A DNA stretch of 64,000 nucleotides from a virus: positions 1-64,000 of the IMG/VR virus record IMGVR_UViG_3300009161_006153. One strand, 5' to 3'. This document shows, one piece after another, positions 14,594 through 64,000 of the stretch (position 1 is its first letter; every line of letters begins with the position of its first letter). The position numbers and the translations under genes are program-made. The notes under the pieces are model-generated. The model searched no databases. It was given only the letters and a program-made list of their open reading frames with translations, and was not told where the DNA came from.

Positions 14594-15497
14594 GATATTA
14601 GTAACAGGGGGAAGCGGATTGGTAGGTAGTCAATTCAAGGGTAGCCAATTTGAAAGGATCTCAACTAAAAACGGGGATTTGAGGGATAGAAAATTTGTAT
14701 CACGATTAATGCAAAATTCTAATTATGAAGGGGTAATTCACTGCGCAGGTAAGGTTGGAGGGGTATTAAGTAATTCTCAAAAACCTGCAGAGTTCTACCA
14801 TGATAACATTATGATCAATACAAATGTTATTGATCAGTCGATGAAAAATGGAATAAAGAAACTTGTGTTTTTTTCTTCTACCTGTGTGTTCCCAGATAAA
14901 GTTGAATATCCACTAAGTCCAGATAAAATACAGCTAGGACCACCACACCCTACTAATTATGCCTATGCATATGCTAAAAGAATGGGACAGGTTCAAATAC
15001 AAGCATATAAACAACAATACGGGGTTGATTATTTCACGGTAATCCCGTGTAACATATACGGACCTGGAGATTTTTATAATCTGAATGACGGCCACGTGAT
15101 TCCGTCTCTGATTCATAAAATGTATCTTGCGCATCAAAATAACAGTGACTTTGAAGTTTGGGGTAGTGGAAATCCTTTGAGGGAATTCATATTCTCTGAG
15201 GATGTTGCTACTATCACAATGAAACTATATGAAGATTATAAAGGGGAGGACCCTGTAATAATATCAACATCAACCGAAATATCCATTAAGGATATAGTTT
15301 ACACCATGTCTAAAATATTTGGATTTAAGGGGAGAATAGTTTTCGATTCAAGTAAGCCTGATGGACAGTTAAGAAAACCAAGTGATAACTCAGTACTTAA
15401 GTCGATGTATCCAGAATATAAGTTCACGGCATTTGAAGAGGGACTTGAAAAGTCTATCGACTGGTTTATTAAAAATTACCCAAAAATTAGGATATAA
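14586..15497 (+). CDS. fcl: GDP-L-fucose synthase
   Basis: GGSGLVG, AGKVGG, SSTCVFP, YAYAK, PCNIYGP, HVIP, WGSG.P.REF, KPDG. Confidence 0.9.
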   Translation: MSKILVTGGSGLVGSQFKGSQFERISTKNGDLRDRKFVSRLMQNSNYEGVIHCAGKVGGVLSNSQKPAEFYHDNIMINTNVIDQSMKNGIKKLVFFSSTCVFPDKVEYPLSPDKIQLGPPHPTNYAYAYAKRMGQVQIQAYKQQYGVDYFTVIPCNIYGPGDFYNLNDGHVIPSLIHKMYLAHQNNSDFEVWGSGNPLREFIFSEDVATITMKLYEDYKGEDPVIISTSTEISIKDIVYTMSKIFGFKGRIVFDSSKPDGQLRKPSDNSVLKSMYPEYKFTAFEEGLEKSIDWFIKNYPKIRI

Positions 15498-29039: not shown

Positions 29040-31274
29040 ATGGCATTTAGAATACAATTAAGAAGGGACACCTCAGCTTTATGGGAAATAAACAACCCCT
29101 TACTTTTACAGGGTGAAGCTGGTTATGAATCAGACACTAGATATTTAAAAGTTGGTGACGGAATAACATACTGGAATAGTCTGCCTTATTTTGTAGGAAT
29201 GACAGGCCCACAGGGTTCAACCGGCTCGCAAGGTCCAACCGGGTCACAAGGACCAACTGGATCTCAGGGCACAACAGGTCAGCAAGGTCCAACTGGACCC
29301 GCAGGAGGTGTTATAAATCTCACCACAATAGGAACCTCTGGACCTGCCACTTTTTTGAATGATTTTTTAAATATACCGCAGTATCAAAGTGTCATCACTA
29401 ATCCAATAACAGGAACAGGTTTAACCGGTTACATACCCCGATGGTCTACTACCTCCTCTCTTACAAATTCTATTTTATTTGATAATGGTACGAATATAGG
29501 CATAGGTACAACAGGTCCTTCTTATAAACTAGATGTTAACGGGGAAATTAACACTAATATCGGGATAAGAATAGGCACTAATAATGCTAAAACCGGTTTT
29601 TATGGTGGAGCTAATATAGTAGATATGTGGGCAGGAAACGAGAAATTAGCTACATGGGGACTAGCTCCCGCTGGAGGCACACTATATGATCATTTTGCAG
29701 GTTGGGTTTTTACTACAGGTAGTACGGGTACTGCATCTTCCGCATTTAGAATATCCTCTAGCTTAGTATCAACATCTGCAAATAATGCAGGATTAACCCA
29801 ACTTTTAATCAATCCAGGATATAGCCAGCAAACATTTGGTATAGGTACATTAAGAGGCGTATATTACAATCCTAGCTTAGGTAGTGGCGGAATTAACACA
29901 TCTACCCATATAGCTTTCGAAAATACAAGTGGTGATAATTCTTTTAATTCAGGTTCAGGTAAAACTACTTTTTTTGGTCAAGATTTACAAATCCGAAAAA
30001 ATCCATCTGGCTATGCTGGTTTTAATACCATATATTCACAAGTTCCTTTATTTACAGGGGGATTAACCAATTTTAGTGATACTACAAACGCATATATTAC
30101 GCAAGGTGTTTTAGGCGGGAATAATATGGCTACTAACACTGTACTAATAAGAAACTTACTAGGGGACGTATCACAATCATCTGGCACATATACCAATACA
30201 CAAATTTTAGGTAGAGTATTAAGTGCAACTGGAAGTCCTGAACATAGATTCTTACATATTAATCCCAGTTATGATGACAACCAAGTTCTTAATACATATA
30301 CAGGAACTATAAGAGGTGTTTATTACAATCTTACCCAAAGTACTTCTTTTCCAGCCGGGGGTAAAAACATAGCTTTTGAAAATGTAAATGGTGATAACTA
30401 TTTAAACTCTACATCAGGTTCCACCTTAATAGGATACACATCGGGTGCAACCTCTTCCTATGTACTAGATATAAACGGTAGAGCAAGAACTACACTAGCA
30501 CTACAGGCAGGTTTAACAGGTCCTAGCGATGCAAATATAGCTGCTGGCGTTTTGTTTGCTTCTAGTGGAATAATAGCGACAACAAACGGCATTAATATAG
30601 CTTCTATTACAAGCTCGCCTTTTAATAAAAATGGGATATATCCAACTAGTAACGGCATGCTTTTTTTCAACGGAAATAACCAAATTGCTAAAATGCAGTT
30701 GCTAGTTGGTGTTTCCCCAGCCTATTTTGAGATCAATGCTTCTTTTAATCCAGCAAACACGGGTAATACTGGAGACCAGTCAATTTTAAGGATACAGGGA
30801 GGAATTCAGCCAGCCGCTAATGTTAACAATTCTACCAATCAAACACAAATAATAATAGACCCTACTATAGATCAATTCAACGGTCTTACCGCAGGTGGTA
30901 CAGGTAGCGGGACTTTAAGAGGAATCTACTACAACCCAACTGTCACAGATATAGCTGGATCAGCAAACAAACATGTAGCGATCCAAACCGTGAAAGGTGA
31001 TGTCCTTTTTGGAACAGGGACATATGCAACAGGGGAGGGTGGATACGTTGGAATAGGCCAGGGATTTAACCCAACAACAGGAGCCACCGCAGATATGCCA
31101 CAAAGGCCCTTGCACGTCAGGGATATAATGAGATTACAGTCTAGAAATACATTCCCTGCTGGAGCTTCCGCAGGAGATATAATGATGTATACAGATGGAT
31201 CTAGTAATGTCGATTTATATTATTACGGTGCAACTGCTGGCGTTGGCGGATGGAGAAAGGTAAGCTTTATTTAA
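29040..31274 (+). CDS. Fibre protein: Mtd_N/hyaluronidase-N anchor + collagen-like repeat + three internal repeats
   Basis: RIQLRRDT...NP.LL.GE.G...DT...KVGDG.T.WNSLPY, (GPTGSQ)n, NIGIGTT, 3x (I[ND]P..GT[LI]RG[VI]YYN..[IV]A). Confidence 0.75.
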   Translation: MAFRIQLRRDTSALWEINNPLLLQGEAGYESDTRYLKVGDGITYWNSLPYFVGMTGPQGSTGSQGPTGSQGPTGSQGTTGQQGPTGPAGGVINLTTIGTSGPATFLNDFLNIPQYQSVITNPITGTGLTGYIPRWSTTSSLTNSILFDNGTNIGIGTTGPSYKLDVNGEINTNIGIRIGTNNAKTGFYGGANIVDMWAGNEKLATWGLAPAGGTLYDHFAGWVFTTGSTGTASSAFRISSSLVSTSANNAGLTQLLINPGYSQQTFGIGTLRGVYYNPSLGSGGINTSTHIAFENTSGDNSFNSGSGKTTFFGQDLQIRKNPSGYAGFNTIYSQVPLFTGGLTNFSDTTNAYITQGVLGGNNMATNTVLIRNLLGDVSQSSGTYTNTQILGRVLSATGSPEHRFLHINPSYDDNQVLNTYTGTIRGVYYNLTQSTSFPAGGKNIAFENVNGDNYLNSTSGSTLIGYTSGATSSYVLDINGRARTTLALQAGLTGPSDANIAAGVLFASSGIIATTNGINIASITSSPFNKNGIYPTSNGMLFFNGNNQIAKMQLLVGVSPAYFEINASFNPANTGNTGDQSILRIQGGIQPAANVNNSTNQTQIIIDPTIDQFNGLTAGGTGSGTLRGIYYNPTVTDIAGSANKHVAIQTVKGDVLFGTGTYATGEGGYVGIGQGFNPTTGATADMPQRPLHVRDIMRLQSRNTFPAGASAGDIMMYTDGSSNVDLYYYGATAGVGGWRKVSFI
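29199..29306 (+). repeat. Collagen-like Gly-X-Y repeat (18-nt period)
   Basis: GPQGSTGSQGPTGSQGPTGSQGTTGQQGPTGPAG; boundaries approximate. Confidence 0.8.
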
Positions 31275-31332: not shown

Positions 31333-31899
31333 ATGGCATTCAGAGTACAAGTTAGAAGAGATACAGGTCAGAGATGGAGTTTAAATAATCCAATTTTGCT
31401 TAATGGTGAAATGGGATTCAACACTGACACCAACCAATTTAAGATAGGTAACGGTACAACCACGTGGAACTCCCTTTCCTATTGGACTGGAGGTGTAGGA
31501 CCAACTGGACCAACAGGTCCTATAGGTCTTATAGGCCCAACCGGCCCAACCGGACCTGGAAGTTCAGTTAGTTATAAAGTGTATACTGCTTTATTAACAC
31601 AAACAGGTCAAGATGCTCCTGTAGCTATTGTATTAGAAAATACTATTGGGACTATTGTATGGACAAGAAACAGCGCGGGCTCTTACACAGGAACGTTAAA
31701 TAACTCATTTCCTGAAAATAAAACATTTATCACATATACCCATGATGGTATTAACGGAAACACAGGATATCCTGGAGGCGTTAGATGGAACAACAACGAG
31801 GTTGAGTTATCGTTTAATGATGGTATTATGAACCCTGGGCAGTTCATTGATATAGGAGACGATGCTATTGAATCAATAGAAATAAGAGTTTACAATTAA
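31333..31899 (+). CDS. Short fibre/appendage protein with Mtd_N-like anchor and collagen-like repeat
   Basis: MAFRVQVRRDT...NPILLNGEMG..TDT..FKIGNG.T.WNSL.Y, GPTGPTGP, YKVYTALLTQ...IEIRVY. Confidence 0.72.
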   Translation: MAFRVQVRRDTGQRWSLNNPILLNGEMGFNTDTNQFKIGNGTTTWNSLSYWTGGVGPTGPTGPIGLIGPTGPTGPGSSVSYKVYTALLTQTGQDAPVAIVLENTIGTIVWTRNSAGSYTGTLNNSFPENKTFITYTHDGINGNTGYPGGVRWNNNEVELSFNDGIMNPGQFIDIGDDAIESIEIRVYN

Positions 31900-44607: not shown

Positions 44608-45162
44608 ATGGCAGGCTTACCACACTATCAAAATTCGCTATCAGCGATTAATAAATTTGAACCGGTTTATTTAAACCAGTTCGAGATTACTATCTTACCC
44701 CCAGCTGCTGTTGTTGGTGGTGAGATTCTTTTGCAACATGTTACAAAGGTTAGTGGTCTTTCTCTAGATAAAAATCCAGGTTTAGCTACTCAGAAATACA
44801 AATTTGCCAAAAGAAATTATGCTGGGGCTAAACCAGATAACACATACATGGATTTAAGTTTAACTTTTACCGTTAACTTGAACGATGCCAACTCTATGTA
44901 TGTCTTTAAAACATTAAGACAATGGTCTGATTTGGTCTACAATCCTTTAACTGGTGCTATGGGCTTAAAAACGGATTACACTGGAACTATAGTGGTCTCG
45001 ATATTTAATAAGACCGGCGACGTTTTTAGAAGAATAACTTGCAGGGACACTTATCCGACCAAACCGATAACAGCGATGAACCTTAATTATACCTCGGCAG
45101 ATATTTTTAAGATAACTGATATGGTCTGGGCAGTAGATTACTGGGATGATCAATTCCTTTAA
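44608..45162 (+). CDS. gp19: Tail tube protein A
   Basis: Follows the sheath; LRQW.DL.YNP.TG, YP.......L.Y, DYW. Confidence 0.8.
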   Translation: MAGLPHYQNSLSAINKFEPVYLNQFEITILPPAAVVGGEILLQHVTKVSGLSLDKNPGLATQKYKFAKRNYAGAKPDNTYMDLSLTFTVNLNDANSMYVFKTLRQWSDLVYNPLTGAMGLKTDYTGTIVVSIFNKTGDVFRRITCRDTYPTKPITAMNLNYTSADIFKITDMVWAVDYWDDQFL

Positions 45163-45178
45163 AAAAGCAATATAAAAA

Positions 45179-45754
45179 ATGGCTGGTTTACCACATTATA
45201 CAAATTCTAGGGCAGCAATAAACAACTTCGAACCTGTTTATTTAAATCAATTTGAGGTTTTAATAAACCCTCCCTCTGGCATCGTAGATTCTAGTTTATC
45301 CTTTAGAGGTGAACAGATCTTAACCCAACAGGTGAAAAGTATAACTGGTTTAGCTGTTGATATCTTACCAAATGATTCAGTTACTCAGAATTATAAATTT
45401 GCATCTAGACGTTATGCAGGGGGTGAACCATCTACATCTGATATGACCCTAGCTATTGAGTTTGAGATAAATCTAAATGATGCAAACTCGATGACTGTTT
45501 ATAAAATTTTAAGGCAATGGTCTGATTTAATATACAATCCTCTAACTGGTGCAATGGGACTAAAAACAGATTATGTTGGTTCAATGCTCATCTCGATTTT
45601 CAATAAAAGAGGGGACGTTTTTAGAAGGATCAGAATACCTTCTTGTTTTTTAAGCCAGGCCATAAATTCCATGGAGCTCGACTATGAGAATGCTGGAATC
45701 TATACAGTAACAGGTAATTGGATCTGTGACTACTGGGAAGATACTTTTCTCTAA
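45179..45754 (+). CDS. gp19: Tail tube protein B (paralogue)
   Basis: Shares MAGLPHY, FEPVYLNQFE, NLNDANSM, LRQWSDL.YNPLTGAMGLKTDY and DYW.D.FL with tube A. Confidence 0.8.
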   Translation: MAGLPHYTNSRAAINNFEPVYLNQFEVLINPPSGIVDSSLSFRGEQILTQQVKSITGLAVDILPNDSVTQNYKFASRRYAGGEPSTSDMTLAIEFEINLNDANSMTVYKILRQWSDLIYNPLTGAMGLKTDYVGSMLISIFNKRGDVFRRIRIPSCFLSQAINSMELDYENAGIYTVTGNWICDYWEDTFL

Positions 45755-54373: not shown

Positions 54374-56803
54374 ATGGATCTTATAAATCAAGTTAGACTT
54401 TTAAAGCAGCAAACTAATTCGGAGGAGGTCAAAAACCTATGTGAAAGTTTTCTGAAAGGTGAAATTCAAATTTCAGAAAGTCAACTAAACGAGATGACTT
54501 CCGATCTTCAAAATATTGGGGCATCTTACAACCCTCCTAAGGACCTAAGAGAGCAAATCAGAGACGAGGAGATTTCAGCATCCAAGAGAATAGCTGAATC
54601 TTTGATGAACAATTGGGAGGTAGGTAAAATTAAATCCCTTAACAACTCAGGCTCATATCTTTCATTGGAAAAGGAGATAAAGGAAAATGAATCAAACCTA
54701 GTTGAGTCACTGTCTCAGCATATATCTGATCCTAGTGCAAGATCCTTTGTTGAAACACAGGGACTAAACAATCTTGGAATACTTGAAGGATTGGATACCT
54801 TAAAAGGATGCGGGATAAATCAGCATCCAGGTTTTAAAATGATGGCTGAAAAATATTCCGGCTTAATCAAATATAAAAATATACCAGAAACGAGATTAAT
54901 CCATGGATTTATTCACGAGTGCTCTGCTTTCAAATGGGACAGCGACGTAGAACAAGTTGTTGAATCAATTCAGAATAGGGCTGAGAAATACTCAAGAGAA
55001 ATAGAGATAATCAAAGTTTTAGAATCAATACAAAATAGCGCTAATAGATCTTTTTATTCTGAACTTAGCGATTCTTTGAACGAGTGGATAGTTTCAAATG
55101 ATAAATCCTCGGCTCTTTTAGCAAAAAATATTCAAAAATGGTCTTTTAATCCAGTTGTTAAAAACCTAATTAATTTTTTAACAATAAACGAATCAAAGGG
55201 AACAGGAAAACTTGAACTTCCTATTGTAAATCAGGGAGAATCTAGAGTGGAAAGAATTTATACTGCGGCTCACATCTCTGAAGGAGTTTCTATTTTCTTA
55301 ATAGGAAACACCCTTTTTGAAATGAGCGACAACGGCTTAACAAAATTAGGATCTAACGGCATTAAAGGTCTTCCCAATGATTATGTAAATTTAATTTCAG
55401 CTCTAGCCAAGACTTATGTAAAAGTAAATGAGGATGGAGTTTTTGTAAATCTAGGAAGAAGCACAGTTAGATTAATAGAAGAGGATTTAGAAAAAAGTGT
55501 TTATTTTAATAATAAAAAAATTAAATTCAATACTTTAAATGAGCTTGGAAAATACCTCTCAATGGAAATCGGTTCTTTTATTGGAGGTGTGAATGAAAAT
55601 GCAGTGGTTAAGGATGTTATTGAAATTTACAAAGGACTAGAAAACATCGTGGAACTTGATTTTGCTAAATCGATAGTTTCTAATATTTATGAAGGTGTTA
55701 GTATAAATCTTTTAAAGCACAATAATGAAATATACTTAAACCGCGTTAACGAATCAATGAGAGAGAATTCACTGTATAAAGTGAACGGAACTCAGGCTGT
55801 TCAAGCGGTGAAAGAATTTTTAAGATACGATATCTCTGAAGGATTAACCGAGTTTTTAGAAGGAGATCATAAGGTAAAATCAATAATGGTTAACGATAGA
55901 ACCAAGGTTTTAGAAAATATCTCTAAGGTTGAATTAGAGATTGATAAGATAGAGTCATTGATAGAGTCAAGCACAGAATATGCACAATCAGAACAAATAA
56001 AATCTGCTCACAGATTGCTAAGTAATGAATTGGGCATTCTTAAAGAGAAGTGGAATCAAATAAATAACGAATTAAAAAAATTAGATTTCGGCATATCTCA
56101 ATCTTGTGATTTGAACGAGGATAGCGCTTTTGATATTGGAGACTATATAAAAGTTAAAGAATCTGGTGAAACCGGAAAAATCATTTCGATCGACGGAACC
56201 TCTGGAAGATATACTGTTTTGTTAGATAATGGAAAAACATCTGATTTTATCGTAAATGAAATAGTTGATTTGGATACTGCTTTAAGTCAAGCAGCAGATA
56301 AAAATTCAGAAGAAAATCCAGAAGATTATGATGGTGAAGAGGAAGTTAAAGAGAATACTTTGAACAAATCAACTCTGTCTGTGGAAGAGCAGGTGAAGAT
56401 ATTAAAAAATCTTGCTAGCGGTCATGGATTCTCAAAAGCTCCTGGAACGAAAAAAGGAGATATAGATATTAAGGTAAATGATCTTCAGGGTTACAACCTA
56501 ACAATGAATGAAACTTCAAAGAAGGAAGCAAGTTCTCAAGATACCTATGCTAAAGCACCAGGGGATAGCAAAATGGGAAGCCAAAAAAATGCTAATCCTA
56601 AAGGAAACCTATCATCTGCTCCGGTAGCTAAGGGAATGGTAAATGGAAAAACTGAGGGTAAAGATTCATTCCCAACAAATGCGCCAGAAACTAAGGGTAA
56701 ATCTGATTTTGAAGCGGGAGATGAAACTGGATCTGACTATGAAACAGGATACAATTTAAGAGAGGGAAACATTGACGAGGATAACGATTTAAAAAAAAAC
56801 TAA
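54374..56803 (+). CDS. Prohead core/scaffold-like protein with KOW/SH3-like segment
   Basis: Many [LIV]xE sites (LCES, ISES, IAES, LVES, INES, VNES, LNED...), FDIGDYIKV...TGKI KOW-like segment, xxxAP repeats; ends LKKN*. Confidence 0.5.
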   Translation: MDLINQVRLLKQQTNSEEVKNLCESFLKGEIQISESQLNEMTSDLQNIGASYNPPKDLREQIRDEEISASKRIAESLMNNWEVGKIKSLNNSGSYLSLEKEIKENESNLVESLSQHISDPSARSFVETQGLNNLGILEGLDTLKGCGINQHPGFKMMAEKYSGLIKYKNIPETRLIHGFIHECSAFKWDSDVEQVVESIQNRAEKYSREIEIIKVLESIQNSANRSFYSELSDSLNEWIVSNDKSSALLAKNIQKWSFNPVVKNLINFLTINESKGTGKLELPIVNQGESRVERIYTAAHISEGVSIFLIGNTLFEMSDNGLTKLGSNGIKGLPNDYVNLISALAKTYVKVNEDGVFVNLGRSTVRLIEEDLEKSVYFNNKKIKFNTLNELGKYLSMEIGSFIGGVNENAVVKDVIEIYKGLENIVELDFAKSIVSNIYEGVSINLLKHNNEIYLNRVNESMRENSLYKVNGTQAVQAVKEFLRYDISEGLTEFLEGDHKVKSIMVNDRTKVLENISKVELEIDKIESLIESSTEYAQSEQIKSAHRLLSNELGILKEKWNQINNELKKLDFGISQSCDLNEDSAFDIGDYIKVKESGETGKIISIDGTSGRYTVLLDNGKTSDFIVNEIVDLDTALSQAADKNSEENPEDYDGEEEVKENTLNKSTLSVEEQVKILKNLASGHGFSKAPGTKKGDIDIKVNDLQGYNLTMNETSKKEASSQDTYAKAPGDSKMGSQKNANPKGNLSSAPVAKGMVNGKTEGKDSFPTNAPETKGKSDFEAGDETGSDYETGYNLREGNIDEDNDLKKN

Positions 56804-56980: not shown

Positions 56981-57013
56981 AAAAAGAACACTATTCGTAG
57001 TGTTCTTTTTTTT
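56981..57013 (+). terminator. Intrinsic terminator with TTCG loop
   Basis: AAAAAGAACACTA-TTCG-TAGTGTTCTTTTTTTT. Confidence 0.9.
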
Positions 57014-57071: not shown

Positions 57072-57431
57072 ATGGCAAAAGACTATGTAAGAAATCCGGA
57101 CCTCCTTGTGGCGGTAAAAGAATCCAAAAATCAAGGTAAGTTAACCCCTGAAACAATAAGGATGTTTAATTTAATGATACAAGGTATTTCAAAAAAAATG
57201 GCTTACAAAGATCAAGATGACAAAGACGATTGCATGGCTTTTGCAATGGAGGATCTTTGTAAATACTGGGATAGATTCAATCCTGAGAAATCTAATAACC
57301 CGTTTGCGTATTTCACTCAAATAGCTAAAAATGGTTTTGCAAAAGGATGGAAAAAGCTCCATCCCCCGAAAAATCCAAAGACTATTCCTTTTAGTTACAT
57401 AACTGGCGATGATAACAGCTATAATGTTTAA
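57072..57431 (+). CDS. gp55: Late-transcription sigma factor (T4 gp55-like, short)
   Basis: YV.N..L, FNPEKSNNPFAYFTQIAKN.F. Confidence 0.8.
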   Translation: MAKDYVRNPDLLVAVKESKNQGKLTPETIRMFNLMIQGISKKMAYKDQDDKDDCMAFAMEDLCKYWDRFNPEKSNNPFAYFTQIAKNGFAKGWKKLHPPKNPKTIPFSYITGDDNSYNV

Positions 57432-57439
57432 TCATTACC

Positions 57440-57925
57440 ATGACAGATATAAAAAAAATAAAGCCTAGTGGCGAGTATAAATCTGGAAAATTTGAGCCTA
57501 GCAATCCCCAAAAATATATTGGAGACATCCACAATATAATTTACAGATCTTCGTGGGAGTACAGATTTTGTGTCTATTGTGATACAAATGAAAGCATACT
57601 AAAATGGTCCTCCGAGCCAATTGCTATAAAATACGTTAATCCCTTGGATAAAAAGGAGCATGATTATAATGTCGATTTTTATATAAAGGTTCAAGCTATC
57701 TCAGAGATCCAAGAGTGGATTATAGAGATCAAGCCTGAAAAACAAACTAAAAAACCTATATTCGAAGGGTCCAATGCAACACTACAAAAGCTAAAATCTT
57801 ATAACAGGAACATGCAGATCTGGATAACGAATCAAGCTAAATTTAAAGCAGCAAAACACTGGGCGGAAAAAAGAGGTTTTAAATTCGGTGTAGTTGGTGA
57901 AAATTTTCTATTTAGAAGTAAATAA
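57440..57925 (+). CDS. gp4: Head completion nuclease (T4 gp4 / TnsA-like)
   Basis: G.F.P.NP.KY.GD, YRSSWE, WSSE, DFY, EIKP..QT, N.AK..AA. Confidence 0.88.
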   Translation: MTDIKKIKPSGEYKSGKFEPSNPQKYIGDIHNIIYRSSWEYRFCVYCDTNESILKWSSEPIAIKYVNPLDKKEHDYNVDFYIKVQAISEIQEWIIEIKPEKQTKKPIFEGSNATLQKLKSYNRNMQIWITNQAKFKAAKHWAEKRGFKFGVVGENFLFRSK

Positions 57926-58524
57926 TGAGCTATAAATCACTAGTAGAATCTTATAAGAATGAGTTTAAAAGCCAAGCTGATCTGGTTAAATCCACGGATA
58001 AAACATTCATGGACAAATATTCTAATGGGGATTCAGGATTTAGACCACCTTTCATTACTGGAACAATTTATTACTTTAAATACAATACTACAACAGAAAT
58101 ATCTAAGGATCGTAGTTTTATTAACAGGAATCCCCTTTTACTTTGCACAGATTATATGAGAGGAAGTAATGGAACTATAGTAATTGGGATAGATCTTATT
58201 ACCGTGCCACCTTTTGAGAGAATAGAGATAATTTCTAGGGTTTATGATACCTTTAATAATACTATAGAATCTAACGAGAGCTCTTTAAATAAAGGGGGAA
58301 AGCAAACCCCTATCCAGTTTAGAAATGGTGTACTGGAGAGGTTGATGCGGGGGACTGGATATTCTAAATCCTTATTCGGATTTAAACTTGATTTTATAGA
58401 TTCTGTTGTTGAGATAAAACTAGAGGATTGGTCTAAAATACCTTATTTAAGATCATCCTCCATAGAAGGGAAGAGCGTAGAAGAAATATATAAAGAATAT
58501 AAAGTGAAATTAAAAGGCACATAG
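57925..58524 (+). CDS. DNA end protector protein (T4 gp2-like)
   Basis: G.IY.FKY, PL, IGI.L...PP..R, W; adjacent to gp4 as in T4-like phages. Confidence 0.5.
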   Translation: MSYKSLVESYKNEFKSQADLVKSTDKTFMDKYSNGDSGFRPPFITGTIYYFKYNTTTEISKDRSFINRNPLLLCTDYMRGSNGTIVIGIDLITVPPFERIEIISRVYDTFNNTIESNESSLNKGGKQTPIQFRNGVLERLMRGTGYSKSLFGFKLDFIDSVVEIKLEDWSKIPYLRSSSIEGKSVEEIYKEYKVKLKGT

Positions 58525-58542
58525 TGACTAAAAACATTTAAA

Positions 58543-60138
58543 ATGGCAGGTTTTAACGATAGCACACCACAAGGATCTCCTGTAGTACAGAGGATAAGGG
58601 ACTCCCTTAAAAGAATTAGTACTTTTGGAATGAAATATGACGATATGGTCATAAGAAATTCGCAGGCTGTTGGTGTAACGGAGGCTGCTTTTCTAAACAA
58701 AAATAAATCCAATGTAGAGGACGAGGCTATGCTTTGGACTCTTGCCAAGCAGGATATTGCAACAAAGCAATTTATCTCTTACTTTGATAAGGATTATAAG
58801 GGTAAACGTGATTATCTCAGAAAATTTTCACTTAATCCCGAAATAGAATGGGTTCTTGATACCTTATGTGACGAATCAGTTTCATACGATCCATCTAATT
58901 TCTTTGCATACCCTGATTTTTTAGACCTAACAGATATCAACGAAAAAATAAGGGATGAGATAAATGACACGTACAAGAGGATTTATGATATCTGGGGATT
59001 CACAGATGATATTACGGCTTGGCAATATTTTAGACAATTTCTTGTTGACGGATTTCTTTGCTTTGAAATAATTTACAATAATATTGGTGATGAAATTATA
59101 GGGTTCAAAGAGCTTGACCCCGTAACTATTATACCGTCAGTAGAAAAACAAGCAGATGGGTCTTTTCTTAGCACATGGATGCAATATCCTCAAGATCCTA
59201 GGAGAAGAAGAGTTCTATATGATCCCCAGATTATCTACATATCTTATGCAAAGGGTAACTCTGTTTCCCGTGTAAGTTATGTTGAAAGACTGATTAGACC
59301 TTATAATATACTTAGAATCATAGAATACACGAGAGTGATCTGGTCTGTTATGAATGCATCTTTTAAAATGAAGATGACCGTTCCGATAGGAACTAAATCA
59401 CAACAGAAGGGAATGCAAACTCTAGGTGAACTGATGAGTATCTATAAAGAGGATATCCAGATGAACGATGACACCGGTGAATTGCTAGTTGATGGTAGAC
59501 CCAAAATACAGTTCTATAAAAATTATTTAATGCCTTCAGGAGTAAACGGTACTCCACAGATAGAACCACTTACTATGGATGGTCCAAATTTGAACGATAC
59601 AACTCCATTGAACTATTTCTTTGATAAATTCGTTCAAGAATCTAAAGTCCCAGCTTCTAGATTTCACGGACCTGACGGGGGAAATACATCAACTTACACT
59701 AATGCTGGGGACGGGTTAGATAAGGAGGAGATAAGATTTCAAAAATTTATTTCTAGGCTTAGATCTATATTTCAAGAGGTAATGACAAAGCCTCTTTGGA
59801 TACAAATGATAAAAAAACATCCGAGCTTAGAAAAAGATTTCATGTTTAAAAGTCAGCTTGGTCTAAAATACTTTTCAGATAATCCATTTAAACTTAATCA
59901 AGAAATGGACATCATTAATAACAGGAAAGAATCACTTACCTCTATGATTTCACTAACTGGTGATGAGGATAAGCCTTATTTTTCAGTTCCTTTTCTTGTT
60001 GAAAACTTCTTAGGAATATCTCGACAGGATTTAACAGCAAATGCAGAAGCTATTAAAAGAAAGAAGAAAGAGAAAGAAAAGGAAGAGAAGAAAGGAAAGG
60101 GTAAGGATAAAAAAGACGAAGGTGAAATAACTTTATAA
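58543..60138 (+). CDS. gp20: Portal protein A (T4 gp20-like)
   Basis: PEIE..LD...DE, FRQFLVDG, ELDP, SYVE, Y..P, S.VP.SR, EEIRFQKFI.RLR..F. Confidence 0.88.
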   Translation: MAGFNDSTPQGSPVVQRIRDSLKRISTFGMKYDDMVIRNSQAVGVTEAAFLNKNKSNVEDEAMLWTLAKQDIATKQFISYFDKDYKGKRDYLRKFSLNPEIEWVLDTLCDESVSYDPSNFFAYPDFLDLTDINEKIRDEINDTYKRIYDIWGFTDDITAWQYFRQFLVDGFLCFEIIYNNIGDEIIGFKELDPVTIIPSVEKQADGSFLSTWMQYPQDPRRRRVLYDPQIIYISYAKGNSVSRVSYVERLIRPYNILRIIEYTRVIWSVMNASFKMKMTVPIGTKSQQKGMQTLGELMSIYKEDIQMNDDTGELLVDGRPKIQFYKNYLMPSGVNGTPQIEPLTMDGPNLNDTTPLNYFFDKFVQESKVPASRFHGPDGGNTSTYTNAGDGLDKEEIRFQKFISRLRSIFQEVMTKPLWIQMIKKHPSLEKDFMFKSQLGLKYFSDNPFKLNQEMDIINNRKESLTSMISLTGDEDKPYFSVPFLVENFLGISRQDLTANAEAIKRKKKEKEKEEKKGKGKDKKDEGEITL

Positions 60139-60142
60139 AAAA

Positions 60143-61792
60143 ATGGCAGGATTTTTAGATGGGTTTAAACCCAATCAATCAGCGTTAGGTAACATCTTAA
60201 GAAGTTTGGGAAAAATCTCAAAGTTTGGGATGGAGTATGATGACATGGTTGTAAGAAACTCCCAAGCCATTGGAAAAAGCGAATCCCAATTTTTCAACCA
60301 GCAGGGAACTGGGTTTACTGAAAATGATGCTTTTTATTGGACCCTTTCCTATCAGGACACGAGAGTAAGAAAATACATTGCATACTTCGACAAAGATTAT
60401 ATTGAGAAAAGGAATTACCTCAGAAAATTTTCATTGAACGGAGAGATTGAATTTATACTTGACACAATAACTGACGAGTGTGTATCGTATAGTGATCGTA
60501 ATTTTTTTGCTACACCCTCTTTTGTAAATATAGGGGACATGAAGGATAAAGTGAAAGAAAAAATTACTGAACATTATAATAGAATTTATAACGTTTTTGG
60601 ATTTCAAAATACTATTCTAGCTTGGCAAGTATTTAAGCAATTCTTAATAGACGGCTTTCTTTCTTACGAGATAATTTATGACAGCAAGGGAAAGGAAATA
60701 ATAGGTTTCAAGGAATTAGATCCAACATCACTTCAACCAGCTGTAGAGAAGATAAGTGAAACTGAATATAAGCAATTCTGGATTCAGTATCCTAAAAACC
60801 CACAAATGACAAGAAGACTCACTAATGAGCAGGTCATTTATATTTCGTATGCAAAAGGAAATGCTGTTTCAAGGGTTAGCTATGTCGAAAGATTAATAAG
60901 GTCTTATAACATACTTAGGATAATGGAAAATTCTAGGGTTATCTGGAATGTTATGAATGCTTCTTTTAGATTAAAATTTATTATCCCTACAGGAACACAA
61001 TCACCACAAAAAGCTCTTCAAACTCTTGGTCAGATAATGTCTAACTACAAAGAGGAGTATTCTATTAATGATACATCTGGCGAATTAACTATAAACGGAA
61101 GGCCAAAAATACAGTTCTATAAAAATTATTTATTTCCTGAGCAAAACGGGCAAAGCCCAGAGGTATCTACCTTAAATCCAAGTGGTCCTGATTTTAATGT
61201 CATGGATAACGTTCTGTATTTTTTTAATAAGCTCAAAATGGATTCAAAAATACCTTATGCGAGGTTTGCATCTAGAGGAGCAACGCCAATTAATTCTCAG
61301 ATTAGTATAGATGCATTGGAAAGAGACGAGATTAGATTTGAGAAGTTTTTAAGAAGACTTAGATCTATTTTTCAGGAGATATTAGTTAAGCCTCTCTATA
61401 TCCAAATGTGTCTCGAATTCCCTGAATTATCAAAGGATAGAGCTTTTAAAACTAATCTTGGACTTGATTTTTATAGGGAGAGCGAATTTGAAGAACTCGT
61501 TCAACTTTCAAATTATAAAAAGAGAGCAGACTTTGTTACTGGACTAGGCGAATATAAAATGAAAATAGGTGAAGAAGAGGTACCATATTTTGACAAGGAT
61601 TTCTTGGTTCAAAGGTTTATGCAATTAAGTCCGGACCAATTCAAACAAAATGCAGATTACAAAAAGAAAGAATCTGCAGAGGCGGAAAAAGCATCTAAAG
61701 AAAAAGAAGGTGGTGAAGAAGGTGGAGCGGAGGGAGCAGAGGGAGCAGCGGGAGCAGCTGAGGGGGAAAAAGAAGGCGGAGTAACACTATAA
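60143..61792 (+). CDS. gp20: Portal protein B (T4 gp20-like paralogue)
   Basis: Same motifs incl. RDEIRFEKFLRRLRSIF; clear paralogue of portal A. Confidence 0.88.
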   Translation: MAGFLDGFKPNQSALGNILRSLGKISKFGMEYDDMVVRNSQAIGKSESQFFNQQGTGFTENDAFYWTLSYQDTRVRKYIAYFDKDYIEKRNYLRKFSLNGEIEFILDTITDECVSYSDRNFFATPSFVNIGDMKDKVKEKITEHYNRIYNVFGFQNTILAWQVFKQFLIDGFLSYEIIYDSKGKEIIGFKELDPTSLQPAVEKISETEYKQFWIQYPKNPQMTRRLTNEQVIYISYAKGNAVSRVSYVERLIRSYNILRIMENSRVIWNVMNASFRLKFIIPTGTQSPQKALQTLGQIMSNYKEEYSINDTSGELTINGRPKIQFYKNYLFPEQNGQSPEVSTLNPSGPDFNVMDNVLYFFNKLKMDSKIPYARFASRGATPINSQISIDALERDEIRFEKFLRRLRSIFQEILVKPLYIQMCLEFPELSKDRAFKTNLGLDFYRESEFEELVQLSNYKKRADFVTGLGEYKMKIGEEEVPYFDKDFLVQRFMQLSPDQFKQNADYKKKESAEAEKASKEKEGGEEGGAEGAEGAAGAAEGEKEGGVTL

Positions 61793-61853
61793 TTCCAAAA
61801 ACCTAAATCATTTATAACCAAGAGGAAAGTATATTTCTCCAAAATTTTTAAAA

Positions 61854-62861
61854 GTGGAAAAGAAAGTAAAGGATCTTTTAGCTGAAAGAAACCATTTTTC
61901 AGATATCAGAATTCTAGTTATTGGAGATGTTATGTTGGATCATTATCTCTACGGTAATGTTGAAAGGATTTCCCCGGAGGCTCCTGTACCTGTAGTTGTA
62001 AAATCCGATGAAAAGTTTTTCTTAGGTGGTGCGGGTAATGTTTTCTCTAATATTATTTCTTTAGGCGGAAAATGTGATTTGATATCTGCTCTAGGTGAAG
62101 ATCAGAATTCTAGTTATATTAAAGATCTCGTGGTAAAGCATAGCTCTGGTAGTTTTTTATTCCTAGACTCATCAAGAATAACTACTGTAAAACAAAGGGT
62201 GATGTCGGGTCACCACCAGTTATTAAGAGTAGACTCTGAAACGACCCTCGATATAGATGGGTCGGTACAATCAAACATAATTCAGAAGGTAAAAGAAATA
62301 GCTAAAAAATATGACTGCATAATATTGTCTGATTATAACAAAGGAGTTTTAACCCCAGAAGTTATAAGGACTGTAATAATGGAATGCAGAGAATTAAATA
62401 TACCTGTTATAGCAGACCCGAAGATTAAATATCTTGATTTTTATTCAGGATGTACTATCATAAAACCTAATTTTAAAGAATTTTTAAATCTGTGTGAAAC
62501 CACTATCTCTCCTGACGATTTAGATTCGATAAGATCTTATGCAATAAAAATAAAAGATAGGTTCAGACTGGAAGCGGTTGTTATAACACTTTCTGATAGG
62601 GGAATATTTTATCTAGACCAGAATGAAAATTTCATGGGAGAAGCTTTTAAAATACCAGTCTCGGATGTTTCTGGCGCTGGTGATACTGTCCTTGCAGTGC
62701 TTGCACTTTGCTATTCTATAGGATTAGAAAAATCTTTTACTGTGGATCTGTGTAACATCGCCGGGTCTATTGCTTGTCAAAGAGTAGGATCAGCTTGTGT
62801 TACCCTGGATGATCTCAATTCACATCCTCATCTGAGAGAGAAATATTCATTCAAAAAATAA
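61854..62861 (+). CDS. hldE: D-glycero-beta-D-manno-heptose-7-phosphate kinase (HldE/RfaE kinase domain)
   Basis: GDVMLD.Y..G...RISPEAPVPV, GGAGNV, SDYNKG, DPK, PN..E, DVSGAGDT. Confidence 0.92.
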   Translation: MEKKVKDLLAERNHFSDIRILVIGDVMLDHYLYGNVERISPEAPVPVVVKSDEKFFLGGAGNVFSNIISLGGKCDLISALGEDQNSSYIKDLVVKHSSGSFLFLDSSRITTVKQRVMSGHHQLLRVDSETTLDIDGSVQSNIIQKVKEIAKKYDCIILSDYNKGVLTPEVIRTVIMECRELNIPVIADPKIKYLDFYSGCTIIKPNFKEFLNLCETTISPDDLDSIRSYAIKIKDRFRLEAVVITLSDRGIFYLDQNENFMGEAFKIPVSDVSGAGDTVLAVLALCYSIGLEKSFTVDLCNIAGSIACQRVGSACVTLDDLNSHPHLREKYSFKK

Positions 62862-62936: not shown

Positions 62937-64000
62937 ATGCTATCAGAATTAAAATTTCTCAGAACTCTTGAATCTTTAACTGGCGAAGGATCGCAGAAAA
63001 AGAAATCTTCAATGCTTAAGGATTGTCTAAATCATAGATTAGAATACATCCTTGATATTTGTTTTAATCCCTTTGTAACAACTAAATTACATAAGATTTC
63101 TATTCCAGGAACAAGCACCGATTATACAGGTGATATCTGGGAGGATTTTAAACAACTATTAGAGGAATTAAAAAAAGCTCCAGCTGCAACATTATTATTG
63201 AGGGAAAGGGCAGAGAGATTGCTCTCTGTAAAACTAACTGATAACCCTGAGGAAGATCTGGAGTTAAGAAAAACTCTTATGAAGATTCTAACTAAAAGAA
63301 TGAATATAGGGATCGGGGCTAAAATTATAAACAAAGCTATCGGGAGAGAGCTGATCCCAGACCCATCTTTAATGCTTGCTACTGATGATCCGGATACCCT
63401 TAATTTGTGGAGTGAAATATTCTGTGAAGAGAAATACGATGGCGTGAGAGTGATAGCTCTTTACAAAAACGGGGAGATCTCTTATTTTACTAGAGCTTTT
63501 AATGAATTAGATTCATCATGCTTCCCTAAAATAAGCTTTGATCTTAAAACTTGTATGATAAATAGCGGACTTAAGGGTGATTGGTTTTTTGATGGCGAAC
63601 TTACTGATCTAAACCGAAAATCTGTTAGTGGTAAGGTTACCCAGATTCTTAAAGGAACAGTTGATGAAAAAATAGAATCTGGAATAATTTTTAATGTTTT
63701 CGATTTAGAGGAAGCTGAAACACTTAATAACAAAATAGGGTTAATTAAATATCTGGATAGAAGACAAAATTTAGAATCTGTTTGCAGATATCTCCCAGGA
63801 GGATCCCCCGTCCAAATAGCTAGAATGTGGCAGCTTGATGAACCCTCACAGATAACTCCAATTTACAAGAATATAGTAAATCTAGGCGGTGAAGGTGTTA
63901 TATGCAAAAACAACTCCCCGTATGAGTGTAAAAGATCTAAATCATGGGTTAAATTTAAAGAGGTGTCTGAGTGTGATCTTGTTATTACCGGATGGTTTCC
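62937..64000 (+). CDS. ATP-dependent DNA ligase (3'-truncated by window edge; absent from ORF track)
   Basis: Translated from ATG 62937: MLA, EEKYDGVR (motif I), FFDGEL, FNVFD, GEGVICK, KRSKSWVKFK. Confidence 0.92.
   Translation, partial: MLSELKFLRTLESLTGEGSQKKKSSMLKDCLNHRLEYILDICFNPFVTTKLHKISIPGTSTDYTGDIWEDFKQLLEELKKAPAATLLLRERAERLLSVKLTDNPEEDLELRKTLMKILTKRMNIGIGAKIINKAIGRELIPDPSLMLATDDPDTLNLWSEIFCEEKYDGVRVIALYKNGEISYFTRAFNELDSSCFPKISFDLKTCMINSGLKGDWFFDGELTDLNRKSVSGKVTQILKGTVDEKIESGIIFNVFDLEEAETLNNKIGLIKYLDRRQNLESVCRYLPGGSPVQIARMWQLDEPSQITPIYKNIVNLGGEGVICKNNSPYECKRSKSWVKFKEVSECDLVITGWF

Follow-up and report, generated by a model that had tools for sequence, protein, structure and literature searches.

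Why should a tailed phage carry two genes for a ring that, to our knowledge, is built from twelve copies of one protein in every case studied? No machine of tailed phages and herpesviruses is more conserved than the portal. The question is raised by the IMG/VR virus record IMGVR_UViG_3300009161_006153, in which two portal genes lie in tandem on the plus strand: A, the first copy (positions 58543-60138), and B, the second copy (60143-61792). The sequence analyzed here (the window) is the first 64 kb (64,000 nucleotides) of this 74,949-bp record. CheckV gave a completeness of 24%, so the record is only part of a phage genome that measures roughly 300 kb or more. The window has a guanine-cytosine content of about 34%, with practically every gene on the plus strand. 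The two portal copies suggest, without proving, that the DNA gateway of this phage is a ring of two kinds of subunit. As the best explanation, we propose that A and B may form one mixed hetero-dodecameric portal ring, for which an alternating A6B6 arrangement is the simplest form; we place its chance just short of even.

Two tandem genes for T4-type portal proteins

The initial annotation, made from the sequence of the window, described two full-length gp20-like paralogues separated by four nucleotides. This description was correct at exactly the coordinates given above. Both open reading frames (ORFs) are intact and full-length, encoding 531 (A) and 549 (B) amino acids, and the plus-strand spacer from the A stop to the B start (60139-60142) is AAAA. 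In a BLASTP alignment, A and B shared 253 identities in 517 positions (49%, E = 0). A matched the Pfam family Portal_T4 (PF07230; curated cut-off, 22.9 bits) at residues 91-506 with an E value of 5.3e-58 and 197.2 bits, covering positions 7-432 of the 433 in the model. B matched the same family at residues 88-510 (model 3-433; E 1.9e-66, 225 bits). PHROG 213, annotated as "portal protein", was also matched by both (E 2e-55 for A and 3e-64 for B). A profile built from 56 A/B sequences matched the structures 9LU6, 3JA7 and 6UZC at E values of about 1e-23 over query positions 92-527, and A alone matched T4 gp20 (6UZC) at residues 244-512 (E 3.5e-11). Judged from these profile matches, membership in the T4-type portal family (PF07230, gp20) is secure for both copies. 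With two PF07230 genes, the record does not follow the rule of one portal gene per genome. Database entries for the A and B proteins are labelled "hypothetical protein".

An AlphaFold2 monomer model of A, made with the 56 sequences, was poor (mean predicted local distance difference test [pLDDT], 58.6), and residues 1-83 and 260-350 were below 50. The predicted secondary structure of A shows the expected helices within this low-confidence model.

The blocks that the initial annotation quoted as common to the two proteins, FGMxYDDMVxRNSQAxG, YLRKFSLN and GRPKIQFYKNYL, were found in A and B alike. The N-terminal segment of about 90 residues (58543-58812 in A and 60143-60415 in B) falls outside both the Pfam model and the solved T4 structure. 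It begins with MAGF in all 56 aligned A/B sequences, and the conserved FGMxYDDMVxRNSQAxG block follows this start. A MAGF, MAGY or MSGF start recurs in nearly all single-copy portals of related huge phages, which are only 30-45% identical. In the T4 portal, head assembly is inhibited when the N-terminal region is deleted (PMC4493910).

A Logan contig from another run covers 59073-62069, including the A-B junction, with 0 differences, and a 47-kb Logan contig from a different study spans the whole portal stretch. An assembly artefact at the tandem junction was rejected because independent contigs from several studies bridge A and B.

Distribution and origin of the pair

The initial annotation had named frequent loss of one copy in relatives as an observation that would count against its reading. 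When IMG/VR was searched with A, 80 loci were obtained, and A was followed by B in all 79 that had room downstream; at the one locus without B, the contig ends 163 nucleotides after A. At these loci, the A orthologues were 69-86% and the B orthologues 62-83% identical to the copies in the window. A search seeded with a divergent B orthologue added 76 loci, of which about ten lie on contigs that had been found before. A was present upstream in 72 of the 76, and in the remaining four B starts within 282 nucleotides of the contig end. A third search, seeded with a distant representative that branches beside the A clade (P0123), gave 80 loci from a much deeper subclade, all with two tandem copies, in which the first copy was 51-55% identical to A and the second 48-56% identical to B. 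Thus, more than 200 related contigs from two deep subclades carry both copies in the same order at every locus with room for them, and no loss of either copy was found among them. The IMG/VR contigs are partly redundant; 28 and 11 clusters served as representatives of the two subclades. The two-portal clade consists of uncultured freshwater huge phages with genomes of about 220-430 kb. In public metagenomes, at least 1763 homologues were counted at E <= 1e-30.

Phylogenetic trees were quick IQ-TREE searches with the LG+G4 model. In the maximum likelihood tree, the first copies formed one clade (Shimodaira-Hasegawa-like approximate likelihood ratio test [SH-aLRT], 99) and the second copies another (97; 97-99 across trees). 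First and second copies together also formed a clade (SH-aLRT 93), within which the two subtrees mirror each other. The single portals of loci L255 and L258, of LR756500, LR745206 and LR756501/2/4 and of Lak-B5 branched outside it. Searches of whole records gave one portal in the nearest relatives and two in G001 (373 kb) and G002 (430 kb), which are complete, terminally repeated genomes. Independent duplications in the two subclades are rejected by the tree. These trees indicate that the pair stems from one ancient tandem duplication at the base of a large clade.

One of the single-portal relatives, the 735-kb LR756501.1 (locus L089), has at 15166-15351 a frame of 101 amino acids that matches only positions 374-431 of the portal model. 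It lies far from the portal gene of that genome and may be a gene fragment.

Equal constraint on the two copies

Next to this universal retention stands the selection on the two genes. For 36 orthologue pairs with unsaturated synonymous divergence (dS), the median omega (ratio of nonsynonymous divergence, dN, to dS; Nei-Gojobori method) was 0.012 for A and 0.008 for B. Across the full set of pairs, the mean dN(A)/dN(B) was 0.97, with a correlation coefficient of 0.96. The stem branches that follow the duplication were likewise similar (0.44 and 0.38 in one tree; 0.17 and 0.11 in the other). Purifying selection is equally strong on both copies. Because omega values, rates and stem lengths are equal, neither copy has been released from constraint. 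No gene conversion between the copies was detected, and an identity of about 50% persists across the two deep subclades.

These values bear on the simplest account of the locus, in which the second gene is a duplicate kept for dosage or redundancy without division of labour, or the pair is an artefact of assembly. Tandem duplicates form easily and huge phages tolerate extra DNA. However, redundant copies decay or become homogenized, whereas here the copies remain about 50% identical at an omega of about 0.01 without gene conversion; and the artefact is opposed by the independent assemblies from several studies that span the junction. We regard this account as scarcely credible, and simple redundancy is essentially excluded. 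From universal retention, a single old duplication and equally strong constraint, it follows that both portal genes are needed.

The rates of the two copies also co-vary. After the genome average was taken into account, the residual correlation between A and B was 0.44, a value from few and non-independent genome pairs. In similarly few and non-independent comparisons, the distances of the gp4-like protein encoded upstream co-varied with those of A (0.34) and B (0.52), and those of an 809-residue protein without family match (54374-56803) co-varied with A (0.39) and B (0.49) beyond the genome average. This co-variation fits a location of both copies at the portal vertex and is suggestive only. 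The 809-residue protein may belong to the head or scaffold and act together with the portal vertex.

Probable synthesis of A and B from one transcript

In all 146 related loci measured, unaligned tails included, the distance from the A stop to the B start was 1-22 nucleotides (median, 6). No terminator-like site was found between A and B in the window, and no T4 late-promoter motif was found in the A-B spacers of the 146 loci. A promoter or terminator between the two genes was thus considered and rejected: none was found, and the spacer leaves no room for one. A and B share the A-rich start context AAAATGGCAGG without a Shine-Dalgarno sequence. A and B must derive from one transcript and are probably made in a fixed ratio. 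The short spacers and the common start context are as expected for subunits produced in fixed proportion.

Gene starts in the window are generally A-rich and without a Shine-Dalgarno sequence (for example, 58525-58545 and 60139-60145), which is typical of genes expressed in Bacteroidota. This agrees with the nearest cultured relatives, which are Tenacibaculum and Chryseobacterium phages, and may point to a Bacteroidota host.

Common outer surfaces and copy-specific loops

To locate the differences between A and B, the domain boundaries of T4 gp20 (PMC4493910) were transferred by two alignments, which agreed within one residue; because the identity to T4 is about 20%, each site is placed to within one residue. 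Columns were compared between 108 distinct first copies and 94 distinct second copies. In 123 columns, the residue is conserved and identical in both copies, including those of the stem helix alpha5 and much of the wing. G283, S286 and K289, which align with the T4 clip tip (N291-K296), are invariant in all 56 A/B sequences, although the residues that T4 has there are not conserved.

The fixed residue differs between A and B in six columns: Q76K, M330F, N335G, T337S, L356V and D393E (A residue first). Three of the six (M330F, N335G and T337S) are located in one segment, residues 330-337 of A (MPSGVNGT; 59530-59553, plus strand) and 331-338 of B (FPEQNGQS; 61133-61156, plus strand). This segment aligns, within one residue, with the inner clip loop of T4 gp20 (residues 336-343), which contacts DNA. 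In the T4 inner clip loop mutants R338A-R339A and D340A-K342A, heads assemble and terminase is bound, and DNA is not packaged (PMC4493910, Supplementary Table 1). Among the remaining fixed differences, one lies at the start of alpha7, just past the channel loop, and one at the end of the tunnel loop. Positions that only one copy conserves also gather in the tunnel loop (A389, G391 and L392) and around the channel loop (N345 and M354 of B). The copy-specific fixed sites are modestly enriched in the stem, clip and tunnel region (5/48 versus 1/81; Fisher p = 0.027). By this mapping, the putative outer, partner-binding surfaces are common to A and B, and the putative DNA-facing loops are copy-specific.

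C-terminal tails

Both proteins end in low-complexity tails on the plus strand. The A tail (residues 501-531; 60043-60135) is rich in Lys and Glu, has a net charge of +4 and ends in EITL. The B tail (61652-61789) is acidic, rich in Gly, Ala and Glu, has a net charge of -6 and ends in GVTL. The C-termini agree with those first described: A ends in KKGKGKDKKDEGEITL and B in GAEGAAGAAEGEKEGGVTL. Both copies have the same layout, in which a Lys/Glu-rich stretch is followed by an acidic stretch of Gly, Ala, Glu and Pro.

The initial annotation had emphasized the opposite charges of the tails. The opposition is real in this genome; among relatives, both tails are usually acidic. The mean net charge was -2.6 for first-copy tails and -6.0 for second-copy tails, and on the basis of these means opposite charge was rejected as a general feature. 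First-copy tails contained 8.8 Lys or Arg residues, against 4.8 in second-copy tails, and the first tail was less negative than the second in 107 of 139 loci. The A tail of the window (+4) is the maximum among 108 distinct first-copy tails. Thus, the opposite charges in the window are a local exaggeration of a mild trend.

The last three residues show a more regular feature. A hydrophobic residue, any residue and then L, I or F (as in VTL, ITL, FTL and FKL; 60127-60135 and 61781-61789 in the window) ends at least one copy at 131 of 139 loci. The motif is present in both copies at 38 loci, only in the second at 25 and only in the first at 68, the last group including nearly all of the deep subclade. 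The eight loci without it still end in L or I, and single-copy relatives end similarly (FEF, FDF, LGL or GF). Following an acidic flexible tail, this end motif looks like a putative short docking peptide for a partner. Because it can be supplied by either paralogue, it fits two tails that act in one assembly.

Parallel duplication of the tail tube

An all-against-all comparison of the record revealed a second tandem pair. Two tail-tube paralogues of 184 and 191 amino acids, 56% identical, lie 16 nucleotides apart on the plus strand (44608-45162 and 45179-45754). Two tubes were present in nine of nine two-portal genomes, and a single tube in seven of seven one-portal relatives. In the tube tree, the two tubes form one clade (100/99) from which the single-copy tubes are excluded. 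According to the portal and tube trees, the two duplications fall on one and the same stem branch. In the complete genome G001 (373 kb, about 474 ORFs), the portal pair and the tube pair are the only strong full-length paralogue pairs; the sheath, neck, terminase, capsid and baseplate genes are single. Both duplications affect ring-forming proteins that line the DNA path.

The identity of the doubled proteins brings in a second account, in which only one copy serves as the portal while the other has been recruited, on the same fold, to a new job: it could initiate assembly or anchor the scaffold core, form a second stacked ring or a plug, be an internal or ejected protein, or act as a decoy for portal sensors. 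Retained duplicates often acquire a new function. Moreover, bacterial immune systems sense portals, as in the case of Avs4 and of RAZR, whose ring assembles around the portal ring (PMC13017515), and tail tubes, which are sensed by DSR2 (PMC10981675). Immune sensors thus target exactly the two proteins that are doubled. However, a neofunctionalized copy usually evolves faster, whereas the divergence of A and B is symmetric in stem lengths, rates and omega. The putative clip tip for terminase binding is retained in both copies, as are stem, wing and the 90 conserved residues at the N-terminus. A portal-mimicking decoy would be expected to set off the sensors, not to block them. We consider a new job for one copy unlikely.

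A third account has A and B build two alternative homododecamers, A12 and B12, used in different particles, at different times, in different hosts or at two vertices. It agrees with the fact that both copies keep every portal hallmark under equal constraint. The consistent differences in the channel loops could suit two regimes of packaging or ejection, and the doubled tube would allow each portal its own partner, tube 1 for A and tube 2 for B. Against it, the gap of 1-22 nucleotides in 146 of 146 loci leaves no space for separate regulation, and the structural genes named above are single in G001. In many lineages the end motif has been lost from one copy, which would be odd if each ring worked alone, and full-text literature searches found no phage that uses alternative portals. 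The initial annotation had offered two specialised vertices as an option, and this option received no support from G001, in which doubling is confined to portal and tube. Taken as a whole, we judge alternative homododecamers to be improbable, more so than a new job for one copy.

A proposed mixed portal ring

We return to a single mixed ring. In this proposal, both genes would encode working portal subunits, A and B would be produced from one late transcript at a fixed ratio, and the two would co-assemble into a single hetero-dodecameric ring at the unique capsid vertex. In an A6B6 ring, both subunits would keep the same wing, facing the capsid, the same stem and the same clip tip, which would bind terminase and neck, and they would offer the DNA two different sets of channel loops. 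One possible gain is that the ring itself would step the symmetry down from 12-fold to 6-fold, a step that a tail tube of two subunits might carry further. We favour the mixed ring because A and B are probably co-expressed in a fixed ratio, their constraint is symmetric, they combine common outer surfaces with channel loops specific to each copy, and the end motif can come from either one; the parallel doubling of the tube adds to this reading. An obligate hetero-oligomeric ring would be expected to show retention of both copies, co-expression and equal constraint; the retention and the constraint were found, and co-expression is indicated by the short gap. The heteromeric ring suggested in the initial annotation therefore agrees with the retention, the short gap, the either-copy end motif and the tube doubling, while we infer the co-assembly itself, its stoichiometry, the alternation and the functional gain.

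Several observations weigh against the mixed ring. Equal constraint is also compatible with two separate homododecamers. There are only six fixed A/B differences across both subclades, and these are conservative (Q to K, M to F, N to G, T to S, L to V and D to E). A charge-reversal signature, as expected if homomeric contacts were selected against in an enforced heteromer, was sought among the six and rejected, since no charge swap is present. Their positions depend on the alignment of about 20% identity to T4, the monomer model of A is poor, and the co-variation analysis rests on few, non-independent genome pairs. Finally, no fused A-B protein was found among the longer proteins searched, which is weak evidence.

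The mixed portal ring can be extended to the tail. An obligate A6B6 portal may have arisen together with a two-subunit tube that replaced a homohexameric tube on the same branch. The result would be a conduit of alternating paralogues from head to tail tip, with symmetry decreasing from 12 to 6 to 3, and escape from immune sensors would be one possible driver. We hold this extended version to be doubtful, although somewhat less so than a new job for one copy. It is speculation that the 6-fold symmetry of an alternating portal and the 3-fold symmetry of an alternating tube match the tail and a trimeric hub.

Comparison with known systems

A and B have the domain order of T4 gp20 (PF07230; 3JA7 and 6UZC; also 9LU6): wing, stem alpha5, clip, channel loop, alpha7, tunnel loop, bent helix and crown. 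The neighbours in the record are T4-like as well, namely gp2-like, gp4-like and gp55-like proteins, large terminase, sheath and, further on, a prohead protease. In contrast to T4, in which one gene encodes a homododecamer, the clade of the window keeps two paralogues, 49% identical in the window, side by side. Furthermore, the solved T4 model lacks any equivalent of the approximately 90 conserved N-terminal residues, with the invariant MAGF, and of the long low-complexity C-terminal tail. The nearest deposited relatives are LR756500, LR745206 and LR756501-4 ("uncultured phage", 462-735 kb) and the Lak megaphages, whose portals are 33-46% identical. These portals also have the MAGF N-terminus and an acidic Gly-rich tail with a hydrophobic or aromatic end. 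However, each of these genomes has one portal and one tail tube, whereas the clade of the window has two of each.

Paralogues within one particle have precedents. In T4, gp24 is a paralogue of the capsid protein gp23 specialised for vertices, and a single head contains both, at different symmetry positions. The positions of gp24 are distinct (pentameric), and the roles of the two copies have diverged asymmetrically, whereas the portals of the window show no such asymmetry and would share one ring or vertex. Sets of the Afp1/5/7 type are tube-fold paralogues within one contractile machine. For the contractile injection systems of Bacteroidales, "two tube proteins" have been described (PMC7394362). 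These tube paralogues, like the tube pair of the window, are duplications of the tail-tube fold. They are thought to form different layers (initiator and tube), whereas the tube duplication in the window coincides with that of the portal. Full-text literature searches turned up no phage for which paralogous, heteromeric or duplicated portals have been reported.

If A and B do co-assemble, a two-subunit portal would be a new architecture for the gate of DNA packaging and ejection, and it could account for the simultaneous doubling of the tube. It would also be a natural experiment on the way in which the portal vertex copes with mismatched symmetries (5-, 12- and 6-fold) and on the roles of individual channel loops. 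Even without co-assembly, a second, constrained portal gene that is universal in widespread lake phages calls for explanation. The pair is also relevant to annotation, to counts of marker genes and to phylogenies of huge phages that are based on portals.

Neighbouring genes

The portal genes are located among head-morphogenesis and packaging genes, as expected of a tailed-phage portal. Immediately upstream, also on the plus strand, Pfam and PHROG matches identified a gp55-like late sigma factor (57072-57431), a gp4-like head completion protein (57440-57925) and a gp2-like DNA end protector (57925-58524). The junctions are tight: the first two genes are 8 nucleotides apart, the gp4-like and gp2-like genes overlap, and the gap between the gp2-like gene and A is 18 nucleotides. 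These three genes probably share a transcription unit with the portal pair. The large terminase gene, the gene for a 1114-residue sheath protein and the tube genes are all upstream of the portals. Genes for a PfkB-family kinase, an ATP-dependent DNA ligase and replication proteins lie on the 3' side, and the head maturation protease gene is at the contig end.

The 270-nucleotide gap on the 5' side of the gp55-like gene contains a perfect palindrome (56981-57010) with a 13-bp stem (AAAAAGAACACTA CGAA TAGTGTTCTTTTT), with T and A runs on its flanks. This palindrome probably acts as a bidirectional terminator at the start of the unit that holds both portals. Directly after the portals, the PfkB-family sugar kinase (61854-62861) is followed by the ATP-dependent DNA ligase (62937-63998; to 64268 in the record). 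The kinase was present at the post-portal position in only 6 of 27 related representative loci and is therefore a variable insertion. Elsewhere in the window, a 744-residue protein (29040-31274) and the next protein, of 188 residues (31333-31899), have in common a segment of 111 residues with 40% identity, which may be a fibre or adaptor module.

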